Origin: Kiritimatiellia bacterium
GTDB taxonomy: Bacteria; Verrucomicrobiota; Kiritimatiellia; RFP12; JAAYLN01
Assembly (NCBI GenBank): GCA_017962605.1
Contig: JAGCUY010000070.1
Coordinates: 2,095 to 66,094 of the forward strand
DNA length: 64,000 bases
Direction of reading: 5' to 3'
In this document: one piece after another, positions 12,447 to 27,676 of the stretch
Position numbering within the stretch: the first letter of the stretch is position 1
Layout of the letters: each line of letters opens with the position of its first letter
The notes under the pieces: model-generated
Told to the model about the DNA's origin: nothing
The model's database searches: none
Seen by the model: the letters and a program-made list of their open reading frames with translations, nothing else
Translations under genes and position numbers: made by a program

Positions 12447-15400
12447 TTATTCTACTGTTGCCATCTCGCCTTTGTTCTCGCGGAGAATGGATAGGTTGCG
12501 CTTCGCCATCGCATTTCCTTTTTCAGCAGAACGATTGAGCATTTCAAGCACTGTGGCCTCATGGTATTCCCCGGGATTTGCTATCTCCGCATAGAGAAGA
12601 ACCGCCAGGTTGTTGAGCGCTTCCGCATCGTCGGCCATCGCGTTCAAGACAGTGTTGCCAATCGCCCGTGACGGCAACTCGCTGAAGAAAAACATCTGCG
12701 CGATGCCATCGCTCCCAGCGGTTTTGCGCAAGAAGAAATACTTTCGCGGCCCGAAGTCGTCGCTATGCCGCGCCAGTATCACAAAGCGGATGTCCTGCGA
12801 AATCTGCCACATGGCGATTGCTCGCTCGACCCCTTCAGGCAAATCCCCATATTGGATGGGCTTATCTTCGGAAATAACAGTCTCGTCCCAGTAGTCATAT
12901 CCGAGAACGGGGGAAAGCAATTCTTTTATTTCCTTTTCCCCGCAGCGTTGATACGCCCCGTCGAGTTTGTCGTATGCGTATTCCTCAGCCAAACAGTTCT
13001 GCGTCCAGTATGTATCCCTGACGCAAATGTAGCACTCCTCCTTATCGCCGCCTTTGTCAGCGGGAATGTGAAGCCTATAGACGCCATCGGCCAGTTCCGC
13101 CAGCAAGGCGCCGCTTTCTGCCTCATAGTCATCCATGTCAAGTTCCCAAAGGTCATTCGCCGCCGGTTTCCATGGACAGAAAACCATCCGTTTCAGCGTC
13201 TCCGGAGGAACAAGCCCCTTTTGCCTCAAAGCCACATGGGAATCCTCACGAAGCAGTTCGTTGACGTATTTACGCCAGTCGAGTGTGTCGTGGCGATAAC
13301 CCACATGGCGGTAGTAGCCGAGCATCATCTGGTCAATGAGCGGCAGCGCAAACCCGCTTTCCATGGAGAAATCTGCTCTGAGACAGAGTTCCGGCCTGTA
13401 GCGGAAGGGACGTGGGGGCTTTATAGATGGCTCGCCAACGAGGTCTGCGTCGCTTTTGTATTCGTATTTCCATGCAAGCGTTGACCGAGAGGGGTCTTCC
13501 TCAGTGAGGTCATATTGATGGCCATAGTAGCCAATCTTGGCATTGGCGAGGCCGTTTGTCAGATCTTCAGCGTCTAGCTCTTGCGTCCAAAACGCCTCCA
13601 TGCTTTGGTGGCCCTCAAGAGGTCTTCCAAGCTCATCGCGCGAGTCAATGATGAACCCCTCTCGCGTGAACTCGTTGGTTGATGCGTTGCCGTTGGACGC
13701 AGGTGTCACGCGCGTCCAGCCGATAAGTTCGCCGTCGTTGCCGTAGTGGAACGAATCAATCCACGTTCCCTTGGCGCATCGCCAAGGGCAAAACCCGCCA
13801 ATCTGCCGCTTCGTAAAGTCGCTGACAGCAAGCCGCCCCTGGGCGTCATATTCGCGCGTCTCGTTCGGATTGAAATAAACGCTGGCAATCGCCGGGACCG
13901 AGGCGCGGCCATTGCAGACGAAGAAGCATCCGATATCGACGCGGGAAGACTTGATGGTCGCGCCGCCCGGAAGCGGCGCGTCGAAAGCCCCGTGCCAGTC
14001 TATTTCGATGCGGGCATGTGCGGAGTCTTCTCCCTGCGTTGTTATTCGCACCTTGTCTGCATCCCCTTGCAGCACTTTCCACACGAACTCGCCGCCCGTG
14101 TTGTTTTCATTGAACAGGCCGTCGGGTTCGGGCAGCCTTTGGGCCTCCACCTCCATTATGGCCGTTTTCGCCGCCCAGAAAGCCTGGATTGCGAAATGAT
14201 GGGCGGAACGTGCGACATATTTGCCGGAATCGTCGCCGAAGTCGATGTTCGCCGCAGGAGACGTGTCAAACGGAAGCGACACCTTGATGAACGGCATGTA
14301 GGGCGGTAGCGCGTTCGTCATCGCGCGGGCGTCCGCCAAGGCCCTCCCGACGTCGATGTCCGCGAAGGACAGGACAGGGCGCTGGGCGACCCCATCCATG
14401 AACGCCGCCTCGTTCGTGACGCACCGCTGGGCGTGGCGGATGATGTTCAGCGCGGCAAGCGATGCCCGGTTCGCGAAGTTCGTCGGGAGCGCCACTACGA
14501 TGTCCCTGAAAAGGCCGGCGAACTTCGACGCATCGTCTGCGCCGCTGCTGACGCCGACGCAGACTGGCAGGTTCGCCATGAAGCGGTCGATGCCGTCCGC
14601 GCCATAGTCCGAACCTGCGGCGTAGAATCCGAGCATGTTCCGAAGGCCGTGTCGCCACACCTCGCGGCATGCCCCGCCCCTGTCGAGGGCGATGATGGCC
14701 GCCGTGCCCATCGGCCTGTTCAGGCGGTTGTCTTCACCCGGGCAGTCGCCTGTCGCCACGGTCGGGATGTGCTCCTCCCTGCGTGTGTCCCTGAACCTGA
14801 ATATCGTCTTGCGCTTGTCGTGGCCAGCCTTGCGGAGCGAGTCGGAAAACGAGACGGCCGTCATTCCCAGAGGCGGCTGGACGCGACTTCCCCAGTCGTA
14901 GTTGAGAAGGAGGACGGGCCGCGCGTCTTCGTCGGTATCGACAGAAACAAGATACTCGCCGCCGATGGGGCTTGTAGCCTCGCCGAACTCGTAATACACG
15001 TTGTCGTCGTCAAGTGCAAGCACGCCATCGGCAATCCGGGCGTGCTTGCGCGGCTCGTCCCACTGCTCCTTGATTTCGCCGGCAATGCTGACGAGTCTGT
15101 CGAACCGCGCGTCGCCGCGAATCCCGGCGAGGTCTTCGTCCTCCATCATGTAGTCCGCCTCGTTGTACCCGGCGGCGATGGCCTGTTCCAGGGCTTCGAT
15201 GGCCTCGTCGGCCCGCCCCTGGCGGGCGAGGGCGCAGGCAAGGTTGTAGAACCAGCGCGGCGGGGCGATTCTGAGACGAATTCCCTCGCGGGCGACCCTC
15301 TCGAAAACCTCCGCCCGCCCTCCGATGTCCTCGGAACACCAGTCCTGCGCCCTTTCCAATTCAAAGAAGTCCTCCGCATAGTCGGGCATTTCCGACATCG

Positions 15401-16133
15401 GGACGCGGACGTCCGCGCCGCGCCACTTGCGGCGCAGCGCGGCAAGCGCCTCGGACGCATCTTCGATTGCGTAAACATCGACATTGGCGGCCTCGATGGC
15501 CTCTGCGAAAAGCGCGTCCACCGCGTCGAGGATTGACTTGAAGTCGGTTGGCGGCGCCTCGCAGGGAAGGACGTTGGCGCTCTCGGCAAGCCGGGAGTAG
15601 CGTATCTTCACGAAACGGCCGCGCCATGCGGTGATGAAGGTCAGGGACAAGCACTTCGCCGGGGCGTCGTTCGCGTCAAATGTGAGCGATGTCCAGAGGA
15701 AAGGGAGCTTCGACCTTTCAAGCACTCCCTCCTCGCTTCTGCCAAGCCATTTGAAATTGTGCCTTATTTGCTCGATTTCATGGCATGCCTTTGCAAGTTC
15801 GCGCCTGACCTCGCCCCCTACGCCATCAGGCAGGATTGGATCGTCGCGCATGAAGATAAAGAGGCTCAATAGACGCCCATTACCGCCCAGGGTCGGGTCT
15901 TCACCAGAACTGTAAACGAGTGCGTAGTCGTCATCGCCAGATTCGGTGAAAGTTCTTCTATCCAGCATCGTCAGGCCGTCTATTTTCTCCGGGAATTCGA
16001 CGCGGAGAACAGGCTCCACCCAGGTGCTGCATTGCTGGATTGAGTTCGCCTCGTATTTCTGGGCCGCGCAAGCGTCTGACATTGCCATGCTTGCCGCGCA
16101 AATCAATGCTGCCGCTATTGTTTTTGTGTTCAT
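12447..16133 (-). CDS. large secreted hypothetical protein (1228 aa) with C-terminal Sel1-like repeats
   Basis: N-terminal signal peptide (MNTKTIAAALICAASMAMSDACAAQ). C-terminal AEALNNLAVLLYAEIANPGEYHEATVLEMLNRSAEKGNAMAKRNL resembles Sel1/TPR repeats. Confidence 0.5.
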   Translation of the reverse strand: MNTKTIAAALICAASMAMSDACAAQKYEANSIQQCSTWVEPVLRVEFPEKIDGLTMLDRRTFTESGDDDYALVYSSGEDPTLGGNGRLLSLFIFMRDDPILPDGVGGEVRRELAKACHEIEQIRHNFKWLGRSEEGVLERSKLPFLWTSLTFDANDAPAKCLSLTFITAWRGRFVKIRYSRLAESANVLPCEAPPTDFKSILDAVDALFAEAIEAANVDVYAIEDASEALAALRRKWRGADVRVPMSEMPDYAEDFFELERAQDWCSEDIGGRAEVFERVAREGIRLRIAPPRWFYNLACALARQGRADEAIEALEQAIAAGYNEADYMMEDEDLAGIRGDARFDRLVSIAGEIKEQWDEPRKHARIADGVLALDDDNVYYEFGEATSPIGGEYLVSVDTDEDARPVLLLNYDWGSRVQPPLGMTAVSFSDSLRKAGHDKRKTIFRFRDTRREEHIPTVATGDCPGEDNRLNRPMGTAAIIALDRGGACREVWRHGLRNMLGFYAAGSDYGADGIDRFMANLPVCVGVSSGADDASKFAGLFRDIVVALPTNFANRASLAALNIIRHAQRCVTNEAAFMDGVAQRPVLSFADIDVGRALADARAMTNALPPYMPFIKVSLPFDTSPAANIDFGDDSGKYVARSAHHFAIQAFWAAKTAIMEVEAQRLPEPDGLFNENNTGGEFVWKVLQGDADKVRITTQGEDSAHARIEIDWHGAFDAPLPGGATIKSSRVDIGCFFVCNGRASVPAIASVYFNPNETREYDAQGRLAVSDFTKRQIGGFCPWRCAKGTWIDSFHYGNDGELIGWTRVTPASNGNASTNEFTREGFIIDSRDELGRPLEGHQSMEAFWTQELDAEDLTNGLANAKIGYYGHQYDLTEEDPSRSTLAWKYEYKSDADLVGEPSIKPPRPFRYRPELCLRADFSMESGFALPLIDQMMLGYYRHVGYRHDTLDWRKYVNELLREDSHVALRQKGLVPPETLKRMVFCPWKPAANDLWELDMDDYEAESGALLAELADGVYRLHIPADKGGDKEECYICVRDTYWTQNCLAEEYAYDKLDGAYQRCGEKEIKELLSPVLGYDYWDETVISEDKPIQYGDLPEGVERAIAMWQISQDIRFVILARHSDDFGPRKYFFLRKTAGSDGIAQMFFFSELPSRAIGNTVLNAMADDAEALNNLAVLLYAEIANPGEYHEATVLEMLNRSAEKGNAMAKRNLSILRENKGEMATVE

Positions 16134-16161
16134 GTTGCGTATCCTTTGAAAGTGTAGGCTA

Positions 16162-18228
16162 TCAAAGCAGAATACTCTGTTTTAAAGCATTCCAGTCCTT
16201 TTCGTTCAGCGTATTCACACCAGAATTTGTCACTCGGCCCTTTGCATCAAAGTATAGATCGAGTTCACCTCCTCCGATTGGTGACTGAAAACTCAACCTT
16301 ATATGGTAATCAGAGAATGCTTTTGCAGAAACGAGTTGGAGAGGCTTGCCCTTCAGAGATTGCAAGATGCGAGCGACTATTGTTTCGTGTTGCGGACGGA
16401 CACTAATTTCTGGCTCGGCAACATCTGATTGTTCGGCTTCCTCCCCAAAGACTTCTCCTGTCTTTTTACCAACCAAAGAAGACAAGCGCCTTCGTGCTGC
16501 ATCATCAAGGCCATCGACATGGTTTTCAATGTGGGTAATCATGGCATTCTTGCGGTATATGACATCAACATATCCCGTTTTGTCTTTGCCTTGAACATGT
16601 ATCCGATACCGAGAGGAAAGCTCTTCGATTTGTCCCAATGTCAATCCAATAGATCGAATAACTTCATCGATTGCCGATGACGTCCTTTGAACACAAGTAT
16701 CCACTTCTACAGCCTTATCATAAGACTTATTAGACGCGAAAACATTAGACAAAGCGTCAATATGCGGAGAATTGGCAACGAATAAGTGTTCCTTGGCGCG
16801 TGTTGTAACAGTGTATGCCCAGCGGAAGAAATAACTACTCATGAGATTTAATCCACAATTGTAGTCCGCCCATACATAATTCCATTCACCACCCTGTGAC
16901 TTGTGGCCTGTAACGGCATAGCCGAATTTTACAATTGGTGCGCGAAGCCAAGGCAACTCTGCCATTTTTTCTTTAACCAATTTGTCCCAAAACAGCTTTT
17001 TGCTTCGGTCTTTTCGGAAATCGGGATATTTCTTTCGCAAAATTTCTTCTGCAAAATGTTTTACCCCATTGTAGAGTCCCATTTGGGCAAAACAATCATG
17101 TTCATCCCATTCGGAAAGAATTATGGGTGTAACATTTATCCAGATGTTATCGACCTGACCACGTTCGGGTTCATAAGTCCAACGCAGAGACATCCTCTTA
17201 AACGTGTATGTGAAGGTGAAAGTCTTTTCACTTTCTTTTGGGCGATAATACCCTTGCAAAGAAAAAGTTTCCCCGAAAGTGTTCACAACAGTGAGAAAGT
17301 CGCCATTGAAGAACTGCACCTTCTCTCCAGATGGAAGAAGAATGCGTGTGTTTCTGATGGATAGAAGCCTTTCTCCGTATTCCGGCAATTTGCCAAAATG
17401 CCCCAAAAAACCTCGAATTACAGCATTGTATTCTTGTACTTTGGCATTAGTATGGGCAATGGCAATCTTTTCGTCTATTGAATCCTTCCAATCGGGAACG
17501 ACAGACAATGTCTCTTCAGAGACCATTGAGACATCCTCGTGCGAGGTAAATGAGAAACGATTGAAGTCTTTTGCTTCAAGCGCTGAGCGCAACCTTGTCG
17601 CCTCAGCAAGGATGCCACTCCCTTTGCTTTGACGGAATACCTCGGTAAGTTCTATTACAGTCGGTTTAAATGAGGTTAATTCCTCTATCTTTTCCGCATC
17701 CAGGGCAGGAGGAGTCTCGCATTGCTCCATGACAGGAGGAAGCTGGAAAGAGTCTCCGACGAAAAAAAGAATGTTTGACGTATTTTGAGTCTTAATTCCA
17801 GAATACTGAATCAAATCCCCCAAAAGAGAACCACTGCCGAATTGAAACAACTCACGATCATTATCATGCTTGGAAAGACCGACCATCGAGGCTTCGTCTA
17901 TGATAAAAGCCGTGTTTTCAACATCCTTGTCATCCTTTAGTGGGAAAATCCATTTCAGCGCATCGTCTTGCTCGTCCCGGATTGGTTCATTCACAATGTT
18001 GAAGATTCCTGAATGGATAGTTGAAGTATCAAATCCTGTTCTCTTGTGTAGAACCATCGCAGCCCGACCCGTAGGAGCCATCAGCATCGGGAAGAGTCCG
18101 CGTTCTTGAAGAACTGGCACAAGCGAACGGATAAGGGTTGTTTTACCAGTACCAGCGGCACCCCGGATGATGAAACAGCGGGTACCAGCATCAAGCGCAT
18201 GCAAAATAGTGTCAAGAGGATTTCTCAT
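16162..18228 (-). CDS. SF1B RecD/Pif1-like DNA helicase (AAA_30 + UvrD_C_2-type) with about 200-aa C-terminal extension
   Basis: Motifs I GAAGTGKTT, Ia MAPTGRAA, II IIDEASMV, III VGDSFQLPPV, IV VFRQS, V YAVTGHKSQGGEWNYVW, VI YTVTTRAKEHL. Start codon lies 2 nt after the RT stop. Low-GC gene. Confidence 0.75.
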   Translation of the reverse strand: MRNPLDTILHALDAGTRCFIIRGAAGTGKTTLIRSLVPVLQERGLFPMLMAPTGRAAMVLHKRTGFDTSTIHSGIFNIVNEPIRDEQDDALKWIFPLKDDKDVENTAFIIDEASMVGLSKHDNDRELFQFGSGSLLGDLIQYSGIKTQNTSNILFFVGDSFQLPPVMEQCETPPALDAEKIEELTSFKPTVIELTEVFRQSKGSGILAEATRLRSALEAKDFNRFSFTSHEDVSMVSEETLSVVPDWKDSIDEKIAIAHTNAKVQEYNAVIRGFLGHFGKLPEYGERLLSIRNTRILLPSGEKVQFFNGDFLTVVNTFGETFSLQGYYRPKESEKTFTFTYTFKRMSLRWTYEPERGQVDNIWINVTPIILSEWDEHDCFAQMGLYNGVKHFAEEILRKKYPDFRKDRSKKLFWDKLVKEKMAELPWLRAPIVKFGYAVTGHKSQGGEWNYVWADYNCGLNLMSSYFFRWAYTVTTRAKEHLFVANSPHIDALSNVFASNKSYDKAVEVDTCVQRTSSAIDEVIRSIGLTLGQIEELSSRYRIHVQGKDKTGYVDVIYRKNAMITHIENHVDGLDDAARRRLSSLVGKKTGEVFGEEAEQSDVAEPEISVRPQHETIVARILQSLKGKPLQLVSAKAFSDYHIRLSFQSPIGGGELDLYFDAKGRVTNSGVNTLNEKDWNALKQSILL

Positions 18229-18230
18229 GG

Positions 18231-20069
18231 CTATAGGTCTCCATAAATGCCGAAATTGCTACCAGATTTTTCTTTGCAATAGTAGTCTTGAATCTCTACC
18301 CTTGTTAATCCCTTGAAAGAGCCATAGTAGCTAAATGGCGCTCCATAGTACCCTCGTTTAATTGTCAAGGTCGTGCTGTCGTTTACGGAAAGGTCTTTGT
18401 TGCCATTATCGCAGTCTATCGCCGGAGTTGCGGGATGCTGTTTCCGCCACTCTCTCTTCATGGCCTTTTTCGCCAGTTTCAGAACAGAGTTGCGTGTTCT
18501 ATCGAGGTTTTTAAGTTGAGACACTACTGAAGGACAAGACGAAATGTGGGGCAGAAATACCGCCAGCCAACTTCTGGCAAATCTTGCATTAGCCGGACGA
18601 TCAATCCTTCCCACGCCAATGGCTGTTAGACGCAATTGGAAAACCTTGAAGAGGTCATACCAGGTAAATCCATTCCTAAACTGGGATTGCGCGTCTTTGA
18701 GCATACGAGTAAGTCGCGTCTTTTCCATGTACATTTTATCCTGATGCTTTTTTATAGTTTCCTTTTTTATGCGGACTGCTCCATCATATCGTATCTGATG
18801 GCCCAGAAAACTAATCCATGGCGTACCAGGGCGTCCTAATCCAGTCTCCTTCCAGGCAATGGGGCCTTTTGATTTTTCGGTGAAGTACGCCGATGAATAC
18901 CTCGCACTTTTAGCTATGGGGTGTGTCGGTAGTTTTAATCGTTTCACAGCATCCAAATACCTGTCAAGAGCCTCCTTGCACTTCTTTTTTTCGGGATGTA
19001 CGATAATTATGTCATCGCAAAATCTTGCATAAAACAAGTTCTCATCTGCATCAGCCATAACAGCGCGGTCGGCTTCATCCATGACGATGTTAGCCAAAAG
19101 TGGTGAAAGCGCACCGCCTTGCGGAATCCCTATTTCATGTGGATTCACATCTTCGTCCCCATAAACTGATTGCAGGACACTAATCGGCACACGATCTACA
19201 CACTCGCGCTTAGCAATGATTTCCGGGTCTTCGTATTCGTCAAGATTGCGTGGAAATGCGTAAACATTCAAATATGCTTCAAGCACTTTCCGAGCGCGGT
19301 TGTCAACACCTTGCGGGGCACGGGCGGAAAAAATGTCGAAAGCTCGCCTAATTATATCGTGGTTGATTACGTCAAAGAACTTTTGAATATCGCAATCTGC
19401 CACATAGAGAGTTTGGTTCGTAAAGCGTTTTCTATATTCGATAAGATTGTTTATGGCCGTATGGATGGAATACTTTTTCCCGTTGCGGCGAAAAGCATAG
19501 CAACAGTTCAGCAAATGTGAATCAAAAACATTCCGAAGATATGCGGCAGTTTTTGAAAGAATTACCCGATCTTTTGAATCGGTAAAACACGACAGGCATC
19601 GGTATGAAGATTTCTTGTTCTCTTCGTCCATCGTTTTTACACGTCCTGTATTCTTCCGAATCAACATCAACTCAGGCCTTCTAAATGCGAATTCGCCGAT
19701 GGTTATAGTTTTTTGTATGTCCATGGCAAATGCAACCAGATTTCTGCCCCATTGGGAGTCTTTGAGCTTTCCGGCTTTCAGCATTCCAGAAATAACGCGA
19801 ATGATTGACAATGTGGCAACATCATTTTGCGATAAACCTTTTCGGGCTTCTTTGCCGCCCCGTCGCCACAGACGGCGCGGCGGAAGCATCTTAGTAATGG
19901 ATTCTTCACTTATCTTACTCTTGGGTTCAAGTTCCTTTCCGGCGTCATCGTGCAAAACCAGCCGGTCCCAATACATATGGTATCTATGGCGTGAAGAGGC
20001 AATACGAGTCCGCAAGGCGCACAGCACCTTTACGATGTCATCAAAACTGAAATACTGCTCAAAATCCAT
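18231..20069 (-). CDS. reverse transcriptase (612 aa) with long N- and C-terminal extensions; not intron/retron/DGR-like in context
   Basis: RT motifs 1-2 (CCYAFRRNGKK ... YVADCDIQKFFDVINHD), 4 (IGIPQGGALSPLLANIVMDEAD), 5 (YARFCDDIIIV = YxDD box), 7 (ISFLGHQIRYDG). About 190 aa precede motif 1 and about 200 aa follow the thumb. Low-GC. Confidence 0.8.
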   Translation of the reverse strand: MDFEQYFSFDDIVKVLCALRTRIASSRHRYHMYWDRLVLHDDAGKELEPKSKISEESITKMLPPRRLWRRGGKEARKGLSQNDVATLSIIRVISGMLKAGKLKDSQWGRNLVAFAMDIQKTITIGEFAFRRPELMLIRKNTGRVKTMDEENKKSSYRCLSCFTDSKDRVILSKTAAYLRNVFDSHLLNCCYAFRRNGKKYSIHTAINNLIEYRKRFTNQTLYVADCDIQKFFDVINHDIIRRAFDIFSARAPQGVDNRARKVLEAYLNVYAFPRNLDEYEDPEIIAKRECVDRVPISVLQSVYGDEDVNPHEIGIPQGGALSPLLANIVMDEADRAVMADADENLFYARFCDDIIIVHPEKKKCKEALDRYLDAVKRLKLPTHPIAKSARYSSAYFTEKSKGPIAWKETGLGRPGTPWISFLGHQIRYDGAVRIKKETIKKHQDKMYMEKTRLTRMLKDAQSQFRNGFTWYDLFKVFQLRLTAIGVGRIDRPANARFARSWLAVFLPHISSCPSVVSQLKNLDRTRNSVLKLAKKAMKREWRKQHPATPAIDCDNGNKDLSVNDSTTLTIKRGYYGAPFSYYGSFKGLTRVEIQDYYCKEKSGSNFGIYGDL

Positions 20070-20222
20070 AGGAGAAAAAAAGGAGGCGGCGTCGCGGAAT
20101 TCTACCTAGTTGGCCGCTTTGCGCCCTTTAGGGCGCAGGAATTTGACGCGGGGAACCAATTGGCCTGCAAGCCCCGCCAGAATCACGGTCGTTAGCCGTG
20201 CGCGACGCGCGCCTCCATAAAA
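20070..20222 (-). ncRNA. candidate structured non-coding RNA / regulatory leader immediately upstream of the RT gene
   Basis: 153-nt spacer that is GC-rich inside an AT-rich island. Contains a perfect hairpin TGCGCCC-TTTA-GGGCGCA (about 20119-20136) and further GC palindromes (GCGCGACGCGCGC). No ORF. Confidence 0.25.
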
Positions 20223-22925
20223 TCATTTCACAACCTCCAATGTGACAGCCTTCCACCCAACGCGATCCTTGAGCTTGTCGTAGGATTTCACCGCTACGCC
20301 TCCGATTTCCGTGCCATTTGTTAAGTCCTGAATAAGGCTTTGTGGCACGAAAATATCTTTTGAGTCGCCTGTTCTGTTGCGAACGAAACCATAGTTACGG
20401 CCTTCGGGCCTGTTGAATGTCCCGGAATAAAACATGCCGAAAGAAGGGAACCCTTCGTACTTGACATTTATTATTTCAAGAATATATGATTTGCCGCTTT
20501 TTGCGCTTCTTTCAAGAGCCAATTCGCATACCGTTCCGCTAGGCATGTTAGCCAGACATGGAAGCTTTGCCCAGTCACCTGTGCATGTTTCGCCATTGTT
20601 GCCGATTGTAAACTCTGAACGCCCACGACGTTTGTCTTGATAAGATAGAATGGCAATCTGCTTGGGGTAAATGTCCCATGGGACTCCCTCCTCTCTTTTC
20701 TCAACCTTGAGGACTCGTAGCCGTTCGCCAACCACTTCCGTCCAGATTTTCACGGGCATTCCTGGCGTAGCCATGCCAAGTACGGGAAATCGTCTTGTTT
20801 CAACGCGAACTTCGGTTGAATTTCCAAAATCTGCAAAAATCTTGGCAATTTTCTCATTGCGTTCCTTGTCAACATAGCATGTCATGAGAACGGCATTAAT
20901 GAAAGGCTGGCCGGCAAACGCGATTTCATCTGCCTTGGCCGCAAACTCATGGTACACGTCTTCATTACTATTTGTTGGAGTTGGATCGGTGGTAAACCGC
21001 ATCTTCTCGCCATCTGGAATTGCCTTTATTGTAACCAACTGTTTTTTTAGCAATTCGTCTTTTTTTTGCCGGAGTTGGTAGAGACTCCATTTTTTTGCGG
21101 TTCGGATCTCTTTTACAATCCTCAATTCACATAGAGCCTCAGGTATTTTTCCCATTTCAATGAAGGCGTCAGCAAGCATTTCATGGACGCCTACAAGATA
21201 CGAACTGTCTTTTGCCGGACAAAGCGCTGCGCGGCAAAGGCAGGCAAAGAATTTCTCCCTGTCATCGTGAAATGTTTCGGCAAGAAGTTGCCAAGTCCAA
21301 AACTGAGCCGATTTTTTGCGAGTTATTTTCGCTATATACTCTCTGGCCTTGACGGATTCGCCGCTTTCAACAAGCAGTTTTCCATAATAGAATGGAAACC
21401 ATTCCTGCGAAGGGTATCTTTCCATGGCCATCCTGATGAAATCCAATATCCATTTGTGGCCTACCACGAACGCAAGGTTTTCACTACGGCCTTTTTGTTT
21501 TGCACACTTATAAAGCAATCCTACTACAGTTTCAACAAGAGAAGGAAATGATTTGTTCGGATTGTCTTTCGGGATGAACGGCGCGTAATCTTCTTCGGCG
21601 AAATTGGAGACATCCCAATTTTTGACAAAATGGAGGAATTGAATGGCCAATTGTTCTTGGATATTCTCACCCGCAGCCTTTACTATCTTTGCATAGATTC
21701 GCAGATATTGCGAATAGGCAACCGAAGGCTTCGGAACGGCCGAGCAGCAATTCACCAAATTGAAACCTTCGACGACGCAATTTGTGACGGCATCTTCCTG
21801 CCCGTTCTTTTCTCGTCCCTCTGGGAAAACGTCATTGAGAATTTTCTTCAATGACGCAGGAGTCAAATCTGCCGCATTTGGATTCCAGCCTTTCTTCAAG
21901 GCTTCGTCTATTGTTCGATAAAGCGCCCAGATTGCACTGGTCTGGGCTTTCTCGCTTTCTGGGTTTAGCGGAATGGCGGCACAGTATTCCCTGAAGGCAC
22001 GGGGATAATCACCAAGCTTGTCACAGACAGAAGCCAATGCCATGTGTGCAAGGAAACTTGTTGGCTGTTCACTAATAAGCGATTCTGCCTTTGACAATGC
22101 TTCTGCCAGCGACTCCGGGTTTGCTGCCAATGCTTTTATTTCACCAGTCCCACTCAAAAACTGGTCAGCTTTTTTTAAGTCTATTGGTCTTGTCGCTTTG
22201 ACTTTGCTTTCTCCTGCGGCTTCCTCATTAAGAGAGAGGTTACGCATTTCGTTGGCAAAGAACTCGACTAGCTTTCGATTCTTAAGGTTTTCCATCGATT
22301 GTTTTAGGCAATCATGGAGCGTCCAAAACATATCTAGTTGGCATGAGGTATCATCACATTTATCAAGCAGTTTTGCCCTGCATTCCTCGAATTGTGCCGA
22401 AAGGTGTTCCTCGCTTGAAAGAGCCTCTGAGGCATAATGTTGAATCAGCTTTTTCAAAATCATGTCATATTCACTATCTCCAAGAGAAAGCCCTTGAAGG
22501 ATAGAGACGAATCTTTCTCGCGTTTTCTGAAGAGTTTCTTTTTGTGTTTTTCCAAGAACATGTAGAGACTTAAGGGCGGCGATTGCGTTGCATCCAGCCC
22601 AGCCAACTGCGCTCGCATTTTTAGCGGTGTCGAGATTGTAGAGGTCGCAGGCCATCAGGAACGCTATAATGCGACATGATTGCAATTCAATATTGTCAGA
22701 GCCACAAGTAGTAATTGCAGCTTTTGCCTCCCGTCTTATGGCCGTGCAAACCTTGAATGCATCCTGACGGTTCGCTGCTGCATATGTTATCCATGACTTT
22801 TGCACTTCATCAGCATAGATCCCATTCAAGGCTGCAATGACATCTACGTCTTTGCGCGTCGCAAGGCCGGAAGCTAGCAACTGCTGCAAATCATCTAGTT
22901 TCCATGTTGTCGTGAAGGTTGCCAT
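20223..22925 (-). CDS. 900-aa alpha-helical (TPR-like) protein with C-terminal cold-shock-domain-like OB fold
   Basis: Mostly helical, repeat-like N-terminal 650 aa. C-terminus NYGFVRNRTGDSKDIFVPQSLIQDLTNGTEIGGVAVKSYDKLKDRVGWKAV parallels the CspA RNP1/RNP2 motifs (KGFGFI ... DVFVHFSAI). No nucleotide-binding motifs. Low-GC. Confidence 0.45.
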   Translation of the reverse strand: MATFTTTWKLDDLQQLLASGLATRKDVDVIAALNGIYADEVQKSWITYAAANRQDAFKVCTAIRREAKAAITTCGSDNIELQSCRIIAFLMACDLYNLDTAKNASAVGWAGCNAIAALKSLHVLGKTQKETLQKTRERFVSILQGLSLGDSEYDMILKKLIQHYASEALSSEEHLSAQFEECRAKLLDKCDDTSCQLDMFWTLHDCLKQSMENLKNRKLVEFFANEMRNLSLNEEAAGESKVKATRPIDLKKADQFLSGTGEIKALAANPESLAEALSKAESLISEQPTSFLAHMALASVCDKLGDYPRAFREYCAAIPLNPESEKAQTSAIWALYRTIDEALKKGWNPNAADLTPASLKKILNDVFPEGREKNGQEDAVTNCVVEGFNLVNCCSAVPKPSVAYSQYLRIYAKIVKAAGENIQEQLAIQFLHFVKNWDVSNFAEEDYAPFIPKDNPNKSFPSLVETVVGLLYKCAKQKGRSENLAFVVGHKWILDFIRMAMERYPSQEWFPFYYGKLLVESGESVKAREYIAKITRKKSAQFWTWQLLAETFHDDREKFFACLCRAALCPAKDSSYLVGVHEMLADAFIEMGKIPEALCELRIVKEIRTAKKWSLYQLRQKKDELLKKQLVTIKAIPDGEKMRFTTDPTPTNSNEDVYHEFAAKADEIAFAGQPFINAVLMTCYVDKERNEKIAKIFADFGNSTEVRVETRRFPVLGMATPGMPVKIWTEVVGERLRVLKVEKREEGVPWDIYPKQIAILSYQDKRRGRSEFTIGNNGETCTGDWAKLPCLANMPSGTVCELALERSAKSGKSYILEIINVKYEGFPSFGMFYSGTFNRPEGRNYGFVRNRTGDSKDIFVPQSLIQDLTNGTEIGGVAVKSYDKLKDRVGWKAVTLEVVK

Positions 22926-22961
22926 GTCAATCTCCGGTTATTGTCATTCAATTTGCAATTG

Positions 22962-24170
22962 CTAACCCTCAAAAACTAATCGTATCTTCGGACTTGGGCG
23001 TATACATTTTTCATACGGACGTGGGATGTCAATATCGCTCCCCTCAAAAAAACGTTTCACGTGGTCAACTATCTGACAACGTCTAAACTTCGCATCATCT
23101 CGTTCCAATGAACCATCACCTATGTCCCCGCTATAAGGGTGAAAGGTATTTAAATGGCCATTTTCATCACAGATATCAAGGCCTTCGGGAATCCTCATTG
23201 AGTAAATGCCGCCAACAATTGCACGGTTGTGAAACGTATGCGTCCTCCTAGAGTTATAATCCTTTTTGAGTAGCAAAACACGTATCAACAAACCCATTGC
23301 ATTGTTGTGCCTTATTTTATTGGTTCTTCCCATTTCTTCAATCAGATTAATCACTTCTAAGGCTGAAAACTTTTCATATTCCACAGGGTATTTCGAGATT
23401 ATCGTCAGTTCCGTAATATCAGAATTTGACATAAATGGTTGCAACAACGCTTTTGAGGAATGCTTCCATCGGTTTTGATTGTCAATGTGTTCGGAAGTAT
23501 TATCATCATTAGGTTTCGCAATTGCGCTCCAGTACCGGTCGGCAAGCACTACTTGTCCTTCTGCTGCGGCACAAAAAGCATTCATATAGTCATAAAAAGA
23601 GTTTTTGGAACTATCATCATATGTTTGTTCTCCTATCCATTTTTTACGCAATATTTCTGTATCACTTTCTTCATAGTTATCTATTGATTCACAGACGAAA
23701 GATTGTCGTAAGTTGTTTATTGATAACCCTTCACTAAACTTGTCGGTTATTATAACGAAGCCCTTGATTTCTCGTGGGGTGGCAATACGCCGAGTATGTT
23801 TGGTCCATGCTTGGATACATTCTTTCAAATAGTCATTATCATCGCCCGTGGACTCGTTAATCGCTACTATATGTTTTCGATCTTCATAAAGGCTATCATA
23901 ATTTTTGAGAACGTTGCAAAGATTGCCAAAAAAGCCGCCTTCTTCTAGTTCGGCATATTCCTCCGCATATTGTTCTGCAATGGTCGTAATTAAAGCAAGA
24001 GGTTTGCGCGCTTTACTAAACTCGTCAAGAATGAGAATACCATTGGCTTCAATAGCATTGCGAAGATTGACAAGTCTGCTTTGAAGTTGTACGGCATACA
24101 CTATGTTATTCGCCGCCTTATCGATGCAACGGCGAATATGCATCCAATCTATGAGATACTGAACAATCAC
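22962..24170 (-). CDS. hypothetical 402-aa protein, partner of the adjacent ABC-type ATPase
   Basis: GTGA start/stop overlap with the upstream ATPase gene. Very AT-rich. No confident domain. C-terminal C-x-x-N-G-H...H...C...D-H region is a possible but unconvincing nuclease-like motif. Confidence 0.4.
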   Translation of the reverse strand: MIVQYLIDWMHIRRCIDKAANNIVYAVQLQSRLVNLRNAIEANGILILDEFSKARKPLALITTIAEQYAEEYAELEEGGFFGNLCNVLKNYDSLYEDRKHIVAINESTGDDNDYLKECIQAWTKHTRRIATPREIKGFVIITDKFSEGLSINNLRQSFVCESIDNYEESDTEILRKKWIGEQTYDDSSKNSFYDYMNAFCAAAEGQVVLADRYWSAIAKPNDDNTSEHIDNQNRWKHSSKALLQPFMSNSDITELTIISKYPVEYEKFSALEVINLIEEMGRTNKIRHNNAMGLLIRVLLLKKDYNSRRTHTFHNRAIVGGIYSMRIPEGLDICDENGHLNTFHPYSGDIGDGSLERDDAKFRRCQIVDHVKRFFEGSDIDIPRPYEKCIRPSPKIRLVFEG

Positions 24171-25228
24171 CTCACGCCCTCAATTCCGAAGAATTCATCG
24201 ACAACTCTTGTTCGAGCAGTAAAGAATCCACCCGGCCATCTCGTTCGATAGTTTCCATAGGAGTCGGTCTTTATCTCATCCACTATACTACCCTCTTCGG
24301 TTTTTGTAACATATAGCACGGAAAGGTCATCTGGCGTAATCGTTCCCATCCTAAGGAAGTTTTTTAGTTTCAAAGCCATTAGTTCGCTATGGCTCTCAAC
24401 AATAAGCTGTCTGTCTCGATTCTCATTAGCGGTCTTGAAAATGAAATTCATGAGACTGGATATTTGCCGCTCGTTGACATGGGATTCCGGCTCTTCAAGT
24501 GCAAAAAGATGTTTTTGCCCCGCCCTCCATTTGCAAAGGCTCAGTCCTGTCTCATACAATCCGTCTATCCCTGCTCCTGTATTGTCTCGCACGACAGTTA
24601 TACCAAAAGTTTTGTCTTTAAGTCTGCTAAAGTCAAGGGCCTCATAAGGGACATTTAGTTCCGAAAAAAACTCATTAACAAATTTGATTGCATCCGTCCC
24701 AAGAAGGAGTGCTTCGTCCAGACTCGTTTTTTTCGTTTCGTCGATTCTGGTCCGAATTGGACGAGCGGCTTCTTGGTGAATCATTTCTGGAACGCCATTG
24801 ACATACGGATCTTTCAAACTCTGATGAATACGTTTCCTCTCTTCAACATCGGTCGGCCTTTCATAAAAGCTATGGACAGCCCCTGAATATGGAGTTTCAT
24901 AGCCGATGTACTTTAGAGAATGTCCGTTTTCACTTTCTCGCCCTTCTTGCCTTGCAGAATACTCATATTTTGGGGAGTGTCCCAAAGAATCTGCGGATGT
25001 TGTTATCCTCAATTTGATTTCCAGATTTGTGTCGCCTGAAAAAACATACTCTTTAAAATTAGCACGAATGGCGGCTACTTCGTCGTTGCATATCATGCGC
25101 AACAATTGAAGGAAAGTGCTTTTCCCGGCGCTATTGTCACCAAAGATAAAGTTGATTCGCCGCAGAGAAAAATCTACTCCTGGGTCACCATAGCACTTGA
25201 AGTTTTTCAGTTGAATTCGCCTAATCAT
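24167..25228 (-). CDS. ABC-type (AAA_15/AAA_21, SMC-head-like) ATPase, defence-associated type
   Basis: MIRRIQLKNFKCYG N-terminus typical of the family. Walker A GDNSAGKST. Walker B/D-loop LFALEEPESHV ... LIVESHS. Likely start at 25228 (MIRR) rather than the track start at 25318. Confidence 0.65.
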   Translation of the reverse strand: MIRRIQLKNFKCYGDPGVDFSLRRINFIFGDNSAGKSTFLQLLRMICNDEVAAIRANFKEYVFSGDTNLEIKLRITTSADSLGHSPKYEYSARQEGRESENGHSLKYIGYETPYSGAVHSFYERPTDVEERKRIHQSLKDPYVNGVPEMIHQEAARPIRTRIDETKKTSLDEALLLGTDAIKFVNEFFSELNVPYEALDFSRLKDKTFGITVVRDNTGAGIDGLYETGLSLCKWRAGQKHLFALEEPESHVNERQISSLMNFIFKTANENRDRQLIVESHSELMALKLKNFLRMGTITPDDLSVLYVTKTEEGSIVDEIKTDSYGNYRTRWPGGFFTARTRVVDEFFGIEGVR

Positions 25229-25262
25229 GAGCAAACCTCTCCTCCAAAAACAAACGATAAGA

Positions 25263-26417
25263 TTATACCAAAAAATGGCTTTCTTTGATAAGGTCTGGAC
25301 ATCCGCAGACATCCGCAACTATTTCCCTGTTCCTCCACTTGATTCGTTGCAGGGGGAATGTGACAGGGGCGTTGCGCTTGGGGACAAGTGTTTCCACGGC
25401 TGTGAAGCCGGCGGCGGCAAGGCTTTTGCGGAGGTTCGACATGGTCTTGGTCAGGTCTTCCGCGAACTTCTCGTTGGAGAAGAGCGAACCCTCCTGGAAA
25501 GTGGCTATCCAGTCGCATTTGCCGGATGCATGGTTTTCCGTGCCATGCAGGGCGAGTAGTCGCCTATGGAGGTCACGGATAGGGCACCCGCCAGCAATCA
25601 AAAGGAGCGTCGCAAAGCATGGGCGGCTCATGGGGACTGTCGCCCCGTCGAGTGTCACCCAGCCATTCCATGCGTCGATTTCAATCTCAGGATAAACAAC
25701 GGCTGGCGGTGCGACTTCCTGAACCCGCGAAACAAGTGTTCCGTAATTTGGCGGCAGCGACTTGAACTTCTCCTGATACCACCCACGCATGCGCACATAC
25801 GGCACCTCGAACAGCTCGCTTTTCAGCGAAGCACCCGCATGACTCTTTCCCGTAAGCAGGGACTTGTAGCGCGTTCCCTTTTTGGGGAAGAAGAAGGGCG
25901 GCTCACTTCCACCCTCCAATGCTGGCGGCAGCAACACATGGTAAACCTTGTCGCAATCGCGGCCGAGAAGCGTCATGCAGGAAAACATGAGGGCGCTCAT
26001 TGTCTTTCGTCCGCCTGCAATCGATACGTGGAGTTCCGTCCCGCAATCCTCTGTGAATTGGCGTAGTTGCGAGAGCATGAAGTTTGCTGCGCGGAGATTG
26101 TCGTCGCCCGTCCTGAGATCGTCGATTTCGTTGCCATGCGCATCAGGGATGGCGCGAATGGATGCGCTCCCGAAAACGAGACGCCCTTCGACATCAAGCC
26201 CGCTCCGCTTCATGCAAGCCAACATGTCGTTCCAAACGCCCCCTTCGAGAAGCGCTTCGCAAAGACATCTCTTCCCGCTCTTCGTCGTGATGGCGACGAC
26301 CTCGTCAGGCACAACCGGAACATCACAATGGGCCAGCGCCCATGCGGTCTCCGTGAGAATCGACGGCGTCGTGCCAACAACGGCCACCAAAACTGCCTTC
26401 TTGTCCTTTTCCATCAC
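25263..26417 (-). CDS. CARF-domain protein (CRISPR-associated NE0113-like Rossmann sensor) with uncharacterised C-terminal domain
   Basis: Strand-1 motif VLVAVVGTTPSILTETAWAL and strand-4 motif LHVSIAGGRKTMSA match the two CARF signatures. 384 aa. GC-rich, host-like composition. Directly upstream of the AT-rich island on the same strand. Confidence 0.45.
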   Translation of the reverse strand: MMEKDKKAVLVAVVGTTPSILTETAWALAHCDVPVVPDEVVAITTKSGKRCLCEALLEGGVWNDMLACMKRSGLDVEGRLVFGSASIRAIPDAHGNEIDDLRTGDDNLRAANFMLSQLRQFTEDCGTELHVSIAGGRKTMSALMFSCMTLLGRDCDKVYHVLLPPALEGGSEPPFFFPKKGTRYKSLLTGKSHAGASLKSELFEVPYVRMRGWYQEKFKSLPPNYGTLVSRVQEVAPPAVVYPEIEIDAWNGWVTLDGATVPMSRPCFATLLLIAGGCPIRDLHRRLLALHGTENHASGKCDWIATFQEGSLFSNEKFAEDLTKTMSNLRKSLAAAGFTAVETLVPKRNAPVTFPLQRIKWRNREIVADVCGCPDLIKESHFLV

Positions 26418-27676
26418 TATTCCCCCTCTAGCAGAAAGTCGTAGGCGTTGACTTGGTGGACGCCATTGTTCGAGGCTGGCAGATCCATGTCGAGCGTAAT
26501 CAGCGTCTTGGGGTAGTGGTCGCGTATCGCCAAAAGAGGCGCGTATTCGCGCATCCGCGTCGTTTCGTCCCGCACTGTCTCCGCAACCTGGTAATAGCGG
26601 ATGTCGTCGCCATCCCGCGTGACAAAATCGACTTCTCGGCCGTCATGTTGCCCAACCATGACATTTCCCGAACGGCGCAGCAACTCAAGATAGACGATAT
26701 TCTCCAGCATGCGCCCCGAATCGCCGGAACGGTTGCCCAGAAGACGGTAACGCAATCCCATGTCAACGGCATAGTATTTGCACCCGCTTGTGAGTACATC
26801 CCGTCCGCGAATGTCATAGCGCGGGGCCTTTAGGAAAAGGAAGGCGTCGCACAAGGCATCAACATAGCCCTCGACCGTGTTGCCGTTCGTCCTGGCACCG
26901 GCGGAGGAAAGCGAGGTGGCGATGTTCCTGAGGCTCGTCAGATTGCCGATATTGTCCAAGAGGAAACGAGCTATGCGGTCGACCAGCCCCGCGTCCGTCA
27001 TCTTCCGCCGTCGCAGAACATCCTTCACCAGAACGGTATTGTAGATGCCGTCAAGATACTCGCCTACAAGCCTCGCATCGCCCCGCAGTGACGGAACATA
27101 CGGAAAAGAACCGAAGCGAAGGTAATCTAGGTAATGACGGGTGTAGTCCCCTGTCGCGCCGATGGCGTTGCAGTATTCGCGGAATGACAGCGGCTGCATC
27201 TTGATTTCAACATAGCGGCCGGAGAGAAATGTCGCGAGGTCGCCTGAAAGCATGTTGGCGTTCGAACCCGTGACATAGACGTCGATGTTCTTGCGCGAAT
27301 GGAGTCCGTCAACCAGCTTCTCGAACTCCGGCAAACGCTGAACCTCGTCAAGGAAGACATATGTCTTTCCATGAGTGGCAATCTGCTGCTTGATGAGATT
27401 CCAAGCATCGCGCCATGACGAAAACTCCGGCGTATCGGGATCCTCGAAGTTGAGGGCGACAATCCGGCTGTCAGGTACGCCGGCGCGCTTCAAACTGTCA
27501 CGAAAGATTTCAAGGATCGTGGACTTTCCGCAACGGCGGACGCCTGTCACGACTTTGACAAGATCATGGTCTCGCCAATGTTCCAACTGGCGCACGTAAT
27601 ACGGCCTGCCGAAGATAGTCTTTTCGCTGTTGTCCATAAGCAACTTCCCGATATAAAAACACTTCAATTGAATCAC
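26417..27676 (-). CDS. AAA+ ATPase, AAA_14 + DUF4143 family
   Basis: Walker A GVRRCGKST, Walker B VFLDEVQ, and a C-terminal region typical of DUF4143 ATP-binding proteins. 1-nt overlap with the CARF gene. Confidence 0.65.
   Translation of the reverse strand: MIQLKCFYIGKLLMDNSEKTIFGRPYYVRQLEHWRDHDLVKVVTGVRRCGKSTILEIFRDSLKRAGVPDSRIVALNFEDPDTPEFSSWRDAWNLIKQQIATHGKTYVFLDEVQRLPEFEKLVDGLHSRKNIDVYVTGSNANMLSGDLATFLSGRYVEIKMQPLSFREYCNAIGATGDYTRHYLDYLRFGSFPYVPSLRGDARLVGEYLDGIYNTVLVKDVLRRRKMTDAGLVDRIARFLLDNIGNLTSLRNIATSLSSAGARTNGNTVEGYVDALCDAFLFLKAPRYDIRGRDVLTSGCKYYAVDMGLRYRLLGNRSGDSGRMLENIVYLELLRRSGNVMVGQHDGREVDFVTRDGDDIRYYQVAETVRDETTRMREYAPLLAIRDHYPKTLITLDMDLPASNNGVHQVNAYDFLLEGE

Follow-up and report, generated by a model that had tools for sequence, protein, structure and literature searches.

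A reverse transcriptase (RT) gene and a structured non-coding RNA (ncRNA) lie between the two defining genes of a TOTE/PDC-M16 conflict system in a Kiritimatiellia genome (assembly GCA_017962605.1, contig JAGCUY010000070.1). The analysis covered a stretch of 64,000 nucleotides of this contig, hereafter the window, to whose positions all coordinates refer, and centered on a superfamily 1B (SF1B) helicase gene directly downstream of the RT gene. The reading that we favor, to which we give a probability of about 0.6, is that a subclade of TOTE/PDC-M16 acquired a class-2 UG/Abi RT of the UG39 type together with its own structured ncRNA, and that the whole is a functional unit whose mechanism we infer below. 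(TOTE stands for TPR, OB, TBP and Effector, a name credited to Aravind, Iyer and Burroughs 2022 in the passage of PMC12458937 that cites it.) We hold with high confidence that the helicase gene encodes the helicase-TBP subunit of a TOTE/PDC-M16-type conflict system, that a subclade of these systems acquired the RT with its ncRNA, and that the entire low-GC cassette (16162-25318) acts as the functional unit. Confidence in the mechanism as a whole, which draws on analogy, is moderate to low.

The cassette occupies 9.2 kb of the minus strand in the order AAA_15 ATPase, 402-residue partner protein, TPR-DUF7017-S1/CSD protein (hereafter the TPR-OB protein), ncRNA, RT and helicase-TBP (Table 1). Its genes have a GC content of 41-47% compared with ~62% for the genome, and at 400-nt resolution the low-GC block (~16100-25300) corresponds exactly to the stretch from the ATPase to the helicase. 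We conclude that this five-gene cassette is horizontally acquired and is a candidate anti-phage system. An initial annotation made from the sequence alone had listed the helicase and the RT and had overlooked the partner genes and the structured RNA. The comparisons described here are based on ~20 related loci (designated L and a number), whose neighborhoods were matched to the window proteins by tblastn and blastp, with additional Pfam searches.

The helicase motor

The initial annotation described an SF1 helicase with all motifs intact, probably active, starting 2 nt after the RT stop codon, and each of these points was borne out. The open reading frame (ORF) begins with ATG and encodes 688 residues. 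In an alignment of 18 family sequences (26-72% identity), SF1 motifs I, Ia, II, III, IV, V and VI are all invariant: GAAGTGKT (residues 23-30, Walker A), PTGRAA (52-57), DExSM (111-115), GDxxQLPPV (158-166), RQ (199-200), GYxxTxHKxQGGxW (436-449) and YTxxTRA (472-478). Four Pfam families score above their cut-offs (AAA_30, 69 bits; AAA_19, 66; PIF1, 42; UvrD_C_2, 40), and the PADLOC model PDC-M16A matches residues 5-669 (E 9e-116). The intact motifs support the idea that the helicase is probably active, as judged from its sequence. At the junction, the RT stop codon TAG (18233-18231) is followed by 'cc' and then by the helicase ATG at 18228, a spacer of 2 nt (coding strand, GGC ATT TAT GGA GAC CTA TAG cc ATG AGA), and a GGAG lies 10 nt 5′ of this ATG.

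The window helicase has in common with the SF1B helicases RecD2, Dda and Pif1 all of the SF1 motifs and the Pfam PIF1/AAA_30/UvrD_C_2 architecture. However, it is not an ortholog of RecD2, since it lacks the RecD2 N-terminal domain and has an extra TBP tail; the RecD2 equivalog model (TIGR01448) scores 104.7 bits against a cut-off of 500, and only residues 16-245 align. We also rejected a conjugative relaxase-helicase, the context that the initial annotation had named as speaking against its interpretation. The TraA_Ti and TraI models score 35.7 bits (cut-off 590) and 21.7 bits (cut-off 2212), chromosomal housekeeping genes flank the locus, and the homologs on plasmids lie in defense islands. 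Pfam and NCBIfam profile scans found neither a nuclease nor a relaxase domain at the N-terminus of the helicase, and the protein begins at Walker A.

The C-terminal tail of the helicase

The ~209 residues that follow motif VI had been described as lacking any recognizable motif, a description that our results overturn. The full-length protein gives a sub-threshold match (E 0.008) to Pfam TBP-TOTE (PF22721), described as the 'TATA-binding-like protein domain of the TOTE conflict systems', and the tail alone improves this match to E 2.8e-4 (20.9 bits, cut-off 27). When the aligned tails of the family were searched (residues 495-688 and 19 homologs), all 20 matched PF22721, with a best E of 2.4e-10, and two of the 20 also matched RnlA_toxin_N.

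An AlphaFold2 (AF2) model of residues 495-688 consists of two repeats of helix, four strands and helix, with a mean predicted local distance difference test (pLDDT) score of 85.9, 137 of 194 residues at 90 or above and a predicted template-modeling score (pTM) of 0.51. In the first repeat, the elements H25-32, E36-43, E46-52, E57-64, E69-75 and H82-89 have pLDDT values >90; in the second, D657, Y659, K663, G664 and T667 are near-invariant within the family. A Foldseek search of this model against the PDB returned a single significant family, Escherichia coli RnlA (4i8o, 6y2q, 6y2r and 6y2s; E 3e-4 to 8e-4; probability 1.0), and because the alignment spans up to 188-198 columns, both repeats are covered. 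Sequence identity to RnlA is 11-14%, and the TM-scores of 0.32-0.38 are low, as expected because the model, with this pTM, does not fix how the two lobes are oriented toward each other. Based on this modeling, the tail is predicted to be two TBP-like nucleic-acid-binding domains.

RnlA, which belongs with LsoA to the E. coli anti-phage toxins, is the only significant structural match to the helicase tail, through its tandem TBP1/TBP2. The N-terminal TBP1 and TBP2 of RnlA have a TBP-like fold and are required for substrate binding (PMC8266594), and in RNase H3 it is a conserved loop tyrosine with which the TBP-like domain touches the duplex, in the minor groove of an RNA-DNA hybrid (PMC7221094). 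In RnlA and RNase H3 the fold binds an RNA or RNA-DNA duplex substrate. The fusion partner of the TBP pair is a HEPN RNase in RnlA, whereas in the window it is a helicase.

The reverse transcriptase

By profile, the RT is assigned to UG39: the PADLOC model RT_UG39 scores 436.9 bits (E 3e-131) and aligns RT residues 3-585 with profile positions 2-537 of 541, a full-length match to UG39 as defined by Mestre et al. The next-best PADLOC models are Drt2 (88.8 bits) and Drt9 (76.3 bits; E 5e-22). The NCBIfam Drt2 model scores 85.7 bits against a cut-off of 390, below equivalog level, and Drt3a falls well below its cut-off. The catalytic D227, PQGGALSP (316-323) and FCDD (350-353) are invariant in 70 homologs. 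The RT is labeled 'group II intron reverse transcriptase domain-containing protein' in GenBank. We rejected a group II intron RT (group_II_RT_mat, 100 bits, cut-off 300; no intron RNA at E<=1) and a retron (retron_St85_RT, 42 bits, cut-off 235; no Rfam retron RNA matched).

Two tyrosines near the C-terminus, Y581 and Y609, are conserved in the RT family, and Y609 is within the last four residues before the helicase junction. The RTs of DRT9 and DRT10, both of them systems of the defense-associated reverse transcriptase (DRT) type, use a protein residue as the primer for DNA synthesis.

UG39 was catalogued by Mestre et al. in 2022 with an associated gene encoding VirE and PriCT-2 domains (primase-polymerase-like; cluster 64) (PMC9226505), and myRT calls it 'UG28b', split from UG28 (PMC8934634). 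Instead of this published partner, the window locus and eight of nine RT relatives have TOTE genes. Pfam and NCBIfam searches found neither VirE nor PriCT-2 among the window neighbors, and both were also absent from nine loci collected with the RT as query; we met this context only beside a 27%-identical RT on a Thiospirochaeta plasmid.

A structured RNA upstream of the RT

The 153-nt spacer between the TPR-OB and RT genes has a GC content of 60% inside a cassette of 45%. In the predicted fold, three hairpins are enclosed by a long closing stem, P1, which GGAGGCGCGCGUCGCG and CGCGACGCCGCCUCC form, and U7 comes next. The minimum free energy of −69.6 kcal/mol compares with −56.0 ± 4 for shuffled sequences (z −3.4). 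Related loci have spacers of this architecture, although their stem sequences differ, and the three internal hairpins carry conserved loop nucleotides.

From an alignment of six sequences we built a covariance model, R1, with a 35-pair consensus and searched both strands of 351 kb, including the whole window. Each RT locus yielded a single R1 site, and in every case this site was immediately upstream of the RT start. Matches were strong in the window, L086, L172, L168, L164 and L165 (E 1e-42 to 4e-28), extended to four loci that had no part in building the model (L173, 3e-18; L166, 1e-9; L174, 6e-9; L170, 8e-9) and were weak (E 2e-4) in L085 and L171. Apart from these, R1 matched only the L165 site on its reverse strand and one further place at E 0.16. 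In a 10-sequence model alignment, 96.7% of the cells were standard pairs, and 21 of the 35 pairs showed two-sided changes. Shuffled alignments gave 7.3 ± 1.8 such pairs, with none of 500 shuffles reaching the observed 21, and only 3-7 such pairs were obtained when the 3′ partner was slid by 1-3 columns.

The RNA matched no Rfam family, the search returning only two chance-level matches; a tRNA search of the window found none, and promoter and terminator scans of the window performed no better than shuffles. In all related loci the RNA and the RT start codon are separated by a U/C-rich tract of 9-20 nt, which may serve as a terminator tail, as a template or as a translation signal. A group of four loci (L002, L085, L088 and L171) has a shorter, conserved-looking structured spacer of different sequence upstream of the RT (GGGCACCGCAAAACUgCGAaCCGGGUUAAUCAUUU...), which R1 matches weakly or not at all, and a second DUF7017 paralog after the RT. 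In these loci the spacer may represent a second type of RNA.

Class-2 UG RTs use upstream ncRNAs as templates (PMC9226505; PMC12632851). Mestre et al. predicted ncRNAs for UG2, UG3 and UG8, UG28 and UG27, but not for UG39 (PMC9226505). The RNA accompanies the RT even in L170 and L173, where the helicase and the ATPase are missing and, in L170, there are no TOTE genes. Because the RNA stays with the RT in these two loci, the RNA-RT pair is the tightest module of the cassette.

Conservation of the linkage in related loci

A metagenome scan with the single helicase protein returned nothing, and a rerun with a family alignment returned eight close loci. In L086 (helicase 51% identical) the gene order is that of the window, the RT and TPR-OB proteins are 80% identical, and the RT stop shares a 4-nt overlap with the helicase start. 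The order in L002 (54%) is ATPase, partner, DUF7017 protein, RT, second DUF7017 protein and helicase, and that in L085 and L088 (51% and 50%) is helicase, an opposite-strand gene, ATPase, partner, TPR-OB, RT and second DUF7017 protein; these three loci and L171 contain the same genes as the window cassette in permuted order. L089 (46%) looks decayed, with TPR-OB remnants and no RNA match, and L091 (42%) has a 926-residue NERD-helicase-TBP protein followed by a DUF7017 protein, and no RT. In L001, which has the closest helicase (72%), the C-terminus of the TPR-OB gene, not the RT, overlaps the helicase start, and the contig ends there. A DUF1848 gene lies 0.8 kb downstream of the helicase homolog in L001. 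An RT was present within 10 kb in five of the six informative close-clade loci found with the helicase, although it was directly adjacent in only one.

The sample collected with the RT comprised nine loci with 34-54% RT identity, picked on contig size. A DUF7017/TPR-OB gene lies directly upstream of the RT in eight of the nine, the ATPase and its partner head the cassette in seven, and a helicase-TBP gene is found within 10 kb in six. Six loci (L164, L166, L168, L171, L172 and L174) have a divergent LysR regulator. This regulator is missing from the window, where a CARF gene occupies that side. In L170 (9825-15767), the genes after a 46%-identical RT and its RNA encode a DUF1848 protein and an 888-residue SF1-like protein, and there are no TOTE genes. 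Because a helicase is missing from three of the nine loci, the RT-RNA module can probably work without it.

In contrast, no RT match was found in any of 152 loci of distant helicases (24-39% identity) among the matches listed, and a TPR-OB gene is directly downstream of the helicase in at least 25 of the 152, which is the classical two-gene arrangement. A contig scan with the family alignment yielded, among the matches listed, helicases of 28-33% identity, mostly from Bacteroidota, which we used only as RT-negative background; many of these cover the core only and probably belong to another RecD-like family. A Rhodothermus plasmid likewise carries a helicase and TPR-OB pair without an RT, next to CRISPR-Cas genes. 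In the RT-less sister clade a NERD nuclease is fused to the N-terminus of the helicase, whereas the RT-associated helicases have no fused nuclease.

We conclude that the association of the RT with TOTE genes is real and conserved in the subclade. The initial annotation proposed that the RT and helicase are genetically tied, and their common strand, common low-GC cassette and 2-nt junction (a 4-nt overlap in L086) agree with this. Direct adjacency, however, is not a conserved trait: the invariant adjacency is that of TPR-OB, spacer RNA and RT, while the helicase floats upstream, downstream or divergent, and in L001 its start is overlapped by the TPR-OB gene. The tight RT-to-helicase junction is thus specific to the lineage of the window and L086. 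The same annotation suggested neighborhood mining and noted that a helicase family found mostly without an RT would make the linkage incidental. Mining gave a divided answer, since the RT is absent from the distant family (0 of 152) and the linkage is conserved within the subclade (five of six).

Partner genes and island setting

Table 1. Features of the cassette and of the surrounding island, with the evidence for each assignment.
Feature	Position in window	Strand	Evidence and remarks
SF1B helicase (RecD/Pif1/Dda-like) with C-terminal tandem TBP-like module	16162-18228	minus	PADLOC PDC-M16A, Pfam, motifs
Helicase core, residues 1-490	16759-18228	minus	Pfam and motifs; Walker A from residue 23
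TBP-like domain 1 (predicted), residues ~518-584	16477-16677	minus	AF2 model and RnlA match
TBP-like domain 2 (predicted), residues ~607-687	16168-16410	minus	AF2 model, RnlA match; Pfam TBP-TOTE on residues 617-668
Reverse transcriptase, UG/Abi class 2, type UG39, 612 aa	18231-20069	minus	PADLOC, Pfam RVT_1, invariant residues
Structured ncRNA, ~145 nt	20075-20220	minus	Fold energy, covariance model, covariation
TPR / DUF7017 / S1-CSD (OB-fold) protein, 900 aa	20223-22925	minus	PADLOC PDC-M16B E 5e-65; Pfam
402-aa ATPase partner	22962-24170	minus	No family match; weak PLD-like model; D211, H314 and R316 invariant
ABC-type AAA_15/AAA_21 ATPase with DUF3696 tail	24167-25318	minus	Pfam AAA_15 E 1e-16, DUF3696
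CARF protein, Cas_NE0113 / TIGR02584	25263-26417	minus	Pfam E 4e-28; NCBIfam 146.6 bits, cut-off 80.65
AAA_14/DUF4143 ATPase	26417-27676	minus	PADLOC single-gene candidate PDC-S01, E 4e-145; at island edge
931-aa SNF2-family helicase with DUF3670	28724-31519	minus	NCBIfam SCO1167/SCO6262 571 bits, cut-off 1200
1228-aa TPR-containing protein, just downstream of helicase	12447-16133	minus	Homolog in L164

The TPR-OB gene, two genes upstream of the helicase, encodes the PDC-M16B partner. Its protein matches the defining Pfam families of PDC-M16B (PF22860 and PF22707), with DUF7017 at E 3.5e-27 (95.5 bits) and a C-terminal S1CSD-TOTE-2 at E 5e-13 (49.3 bits), both above cut-offs.

At the head of the cassette, the ATPase matches the PADLOC models NsnB (2e-26) and AriA (1e-18) and is GajA-like, and its stop overlaps the start of the 402-aa partner by 4 nt (24167-24170). 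The mechanically called ATPase ORF starts at a TTG overlapping the CARF gene; residue 31 is where both the homologs and the Pfam AAA_15 match begin, and the true start is probably this M31, an ATG at 25228. The 402-aa partner has no Pfam, PADLOC or NCBIfam match and is rare: a search of 1.84 billion proteins gave 44 representatives (E<=1e-3). Its structural model (pLDDT 90.4, pTM 0.89) is confident and gives weak best matches in the PDB to PLD3, PLD1, phosphatidylserine synthase and F13 (E 7e-3 to 0.08; 7e-3 to 0.03 for the first three). The invariant D211, H314 and R316 ('FHNR') could be a variant HxK motif, and the likeness to the phospholipase D (PLD) superfamily is a weak lead only. No nuclease domain was recognized in the cassette; the candidate effectors are the RT-RNA module and the ATPase with its possibly PLD-like partner.

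The CARF gene is a recurrent but optional neighbor outside the low-GC cassette. Its GC content is 0.57 compared with 0.41-0.47 in the cassette, and no CRISPR-Cas genes were seen near it in the window. A 61%-identical homolog is found after the RT in L164 and a CARF gene end before the ATPase in L086, and short N-terminal CARF fragments precede the helicase in L084 and L085. We considered CARF and the adjacent AAA_14/DUF4143 ATPase as cassette members and rejected both because they are compositionally separate (56-58% GC), even though CARF recurs in two relatives. The SNF2-family helicase at 28724-31519 has weaker matches to ZorD and DrmD. A 41%-identical homolog of the 1228-aa TPR protein is found in L164 (19853-21805), ~8 kb from the RT, so the cassette may sit in the same chromosomal neighborhood in related bacteria. 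Farther out lie housekeeping genes, which encode FtsK, a MiaB-like radical-SAM enzyme, a sodium:solute symporter and CpaB.

Uneven divergence within the cassette

When compared with L086 DNA, the window is ~80% identical from 22944 down to 17527, at which point similarity disappears abruptly; the similar stretch spans the TPR-OB gene, the RNA, the RT and the first ~234 helicase codons. Identity to the L086 helicase is 60-70% for residues 1-250, 44-50% for residues 251-400 and 22-36% for residues 501-650 (the TBP region). Compared with the rest of the cassette, the 2B region of the helicase and its TBP tail have diverged much further from L086, a pattern that suggests recombination or diversifying selection on the tail. 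Likewise, the 402-aa partner is only 37% identical to its L086 counterpart, compared with 74-80% for its neighbors.

The low identity of the tail and of the 402-aa protein beside conserved neighbors points to exchangeable or fast-evolving modules, which is the usual behavior of parts that meet phage components. Being the fastest-evolving parts of the cassette, they are the likeliest points of contact with phage.

Proposed mechanism and alternative explanations

Repetitive reverse transcription of ncRNAs is known from DRT2 (rolling circle), DRT9 (poly-U into poly-dA) and DRT10 (tandem repeats) (PMC12632851; PMC9226505), and the field's authors expect further class-2 UG groups to use ncRNA templates (PMC12632851). 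By analogy with these three systems, the RT of the cassette would bind the upstream ncRNA and copy part of it into single-stranded or repetitive cDNA, either constitutively or on infection. The helicase would dock through its tandem TBP-like module on the RNA-DNA hybrid, or on another double-stranded nucleic acid, and its SF1B motor would strip or translocate along the DNA strand, releasing the cDNA and allowing repeated rounds of synthesis. The S1/CSD OB-folds of the TPR protein would bind the single strand while the TPR array holds the complex together, and the ATPase and the 402-aa partner would form a sensor/effector pair that stops infection. In RT-less sister systems, the NERD nuclease fused to the helicase may take the place of the effector, which agrees with the idea that, in the subclade of the window, the RT-RNA module or the ATPase pair fills the 'effector' slot of TOTE. 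We regard this complete scheme, which would make the cassette a new multi-component RT defense system ('RT-TOTE'), as tentative and rather less likely than not, including its elements that the helicase unwinds or recycles the hybrid through the TBP pair, that the scaffold and ATPase pair give the antiviral outcome and that the hypervariable TBP tail is a phage-facing specificity module.

Several points weigh against the functional unit that we propose. A helicase is missing within 10 kb in L165, L170 and L173, and RT and helicase identities to the window are decoupled (80% versus 51% in L086, 34% versus 46% in L171 and 54% versus 31% in L164). The 21 RNA pairs with two-sided changes were counted on an alignment fitted to the model itself, and instead of being a template the RNA might act in cis, as a leader or terminator. 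The PLD resemblance of the 402-aa partner is weak (TM-scores 0.18-0.25). Moreover, Mestre et al. graded the prediction of a defense role for UG39 as inconclusive and gave it the different partner VirE and PriCT-2 (PMC9226505), and we found no published experimental test of anti-phage activity for TOTE/PDC-M16 or UG39.

The main rival explanation is that two independent neighbors meet in the window, a stand-alone DRT-like unit of RT and ncRNA and a two-gene TOTE unit, with the 2-nt junction reflecting operon packing and the helicase not acting on the RT product. The loci without a helicase (three of nine) keep this explanation alive, as do the decoupled identities; in addition, RT and ncRNA occur without TOTE genes in L170, and helicase-TBP and TPR-OB occur without an RT in the distant relatives and on the Rhodothermus plasmid. 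However, in the window and L086 the RT and RNA are inserted between both TOTE genes, and TPR-OB directly precedes the RNA and RT in eight of nine loci that span 34-54% RT identity. Since the whole cassette is also one compositional block, and its type of helicase is free of the nuclease fused to that of the RT-less sister clade, we consider independent neighbors unlikely. It is quite unlikely, too, that the structure upstream of the RT is simply a cis-regulatory leader or intrinsic terminator for RT expression, with the helicase unrelated to it. This possibility would account for the U-run that follows the 3′ strand of P1 in the window, for the U/C-rich tracts elsewhere and for the end of the structure 10-15 nt before the RT start codon, but three conserved hairpins with conserved loop nucleotides exceed what a terminator needs, the RNA stays with the RT even in L170, which has a different upstream gene, and the closest characterized RTs (UG2, UG28 and UG17) all use an upstream ncRNA.

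Two further explanations place the helicase outside of defense altogether or derive the pair from a mobile element. An origin of the RT-helicase pair in a mobile retroelement or conjugative element (a group II intron, a retron RT or a TraA/TraI relaxase-helicase) is suggested by the GenBank name of the RT, by the weak NCBIfam matches to group_II_RT_mat, TraA_Ti and TraI, and by a closing-stem RNA upstream of the RT that superficially recalls retron a1/a2 pairing. We judge this origin very improbable, given that all mobile-element scores are far below cut-offs whereas the UG39 model scores 437 bits, and that we found no Rfam intron family, no relaxase, maturase or endonuclease domain and no tRNA in a locus with housekeeping flanks. 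It is scarcely credible that the gene is a housekeeping RecD2-type repair helicase beside a defense RT by chance: RecD2 is indeed the best NCBIfam and PDB sequence match, but that match is partial (105 bits against 500), the gene lies in a 42-47% GC island of a 62% GC genome, and the protein, which has the TBP tail specific to TOTE, matches PDC-M16A from one end to the other.

Relation to known systems

Both defining proteins of TOTE/PDC-M16 are present in the window (a helicase with TBP-TOTE and a TPR/DUF7017 protein with S1CSD-TOTE-2) and match along their whole length, and the setting in a defense island is also common to both. The window differs from TOTE in that its two TOTE genes are separated by an RT and a structured RNA, the operon is headed by an AAA_15 ATPase and its rare partner, and the helicase has no fused nuclease. 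Moreover, the classical pair runs helicase then TPR-OB, whereas the window runs TPR-OB, RT and helicase. With DRT9 (UG28), DRT2 (UG2) and DRT10 (UG17) the window shares the RT class, an upstream structured ncRNA and intact catalytic motifs. In contrast to these systems, which consist of RT and ncRNA alone or with a SLATT protein, the window has four protein partners, including a helicase; compared with DRT2 and DRT9, its RT is far below the Drt2 cut-off, and its RNA has no Rfam match.

The initial annotation called the pairing of an RT with a helicase unusual among RT defense systems. That view needs qualification, since the helicase is of the PDC-M16A/TOTE family, the RT is of the UG39 type, and pairings of UG35 with a UvrD-like helicase and of UG34 with a NERD-helicase have already been listed (PMC9226505). 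As in the window, UG34, UG35 and PADLOC RTasHel link an RT to an SF1 helicase in a putative defense locus, and none of them is characterized. However, UG34 and UG35 are class-1 RTs with other helicase families, and RTasHel matches the window helicase only at E 0.008. Locus L170 adds another pairing, in which a window-type RT and RNA occur with DUF1848 and the 888-residue SF1-like protein. Finally, PARIS (AriA/AriB), Gabija (GajA) and Septu couple an AAA_15/AAA_21 ATPase to a small partner, as in the window, although the window partner has no Toprim, HNH or other nuclease signature and has a weakly PLD-like modeled fold with HxR in place of HxK.

The helicase alone is ordinary within its candidate family; the specific lead is the conserved RT-RNA-TOTE cassette with its new structured RNA. 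We found no published RT-bearing TOTE system, UG39 ncRNA or five-gene cassette in a search that left out the TOTE review and the supplements of Mestre et al., where a prior mention is possible.

Significance

The cassette joins two separate catalogues, the TOTE/PDC-M16 systems and the UG/Abi RTs, and the published prediction of a UG39 partner does not fit the loci examined here. Research on defense-associated RTs is very active and is looking for systems of this sort, and DRT2, DRT9 and DRT10 each revealed an unexpected use of ncRNA-templated DNA synthesis in immunity. If the RT and TOTE components work together as proposed, the cassette would be the first case among DRT-type systems of a mechanistic coupling between cDNA synthesis and a helicase, and if the helicase processes the RT product, this would be a new principle among DRTs with a possible use in engineered DNA-writing tools. 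The cassette is a compact, testable unit, with an RNA supported by covariation, an RT with intact catalytic residues and a predicted tail fold that is known to grip RNA-DNA duplexes. For the TOTE family itself, our results suggest that an RT-RNA module can serve as an exchangeable 'effector'.

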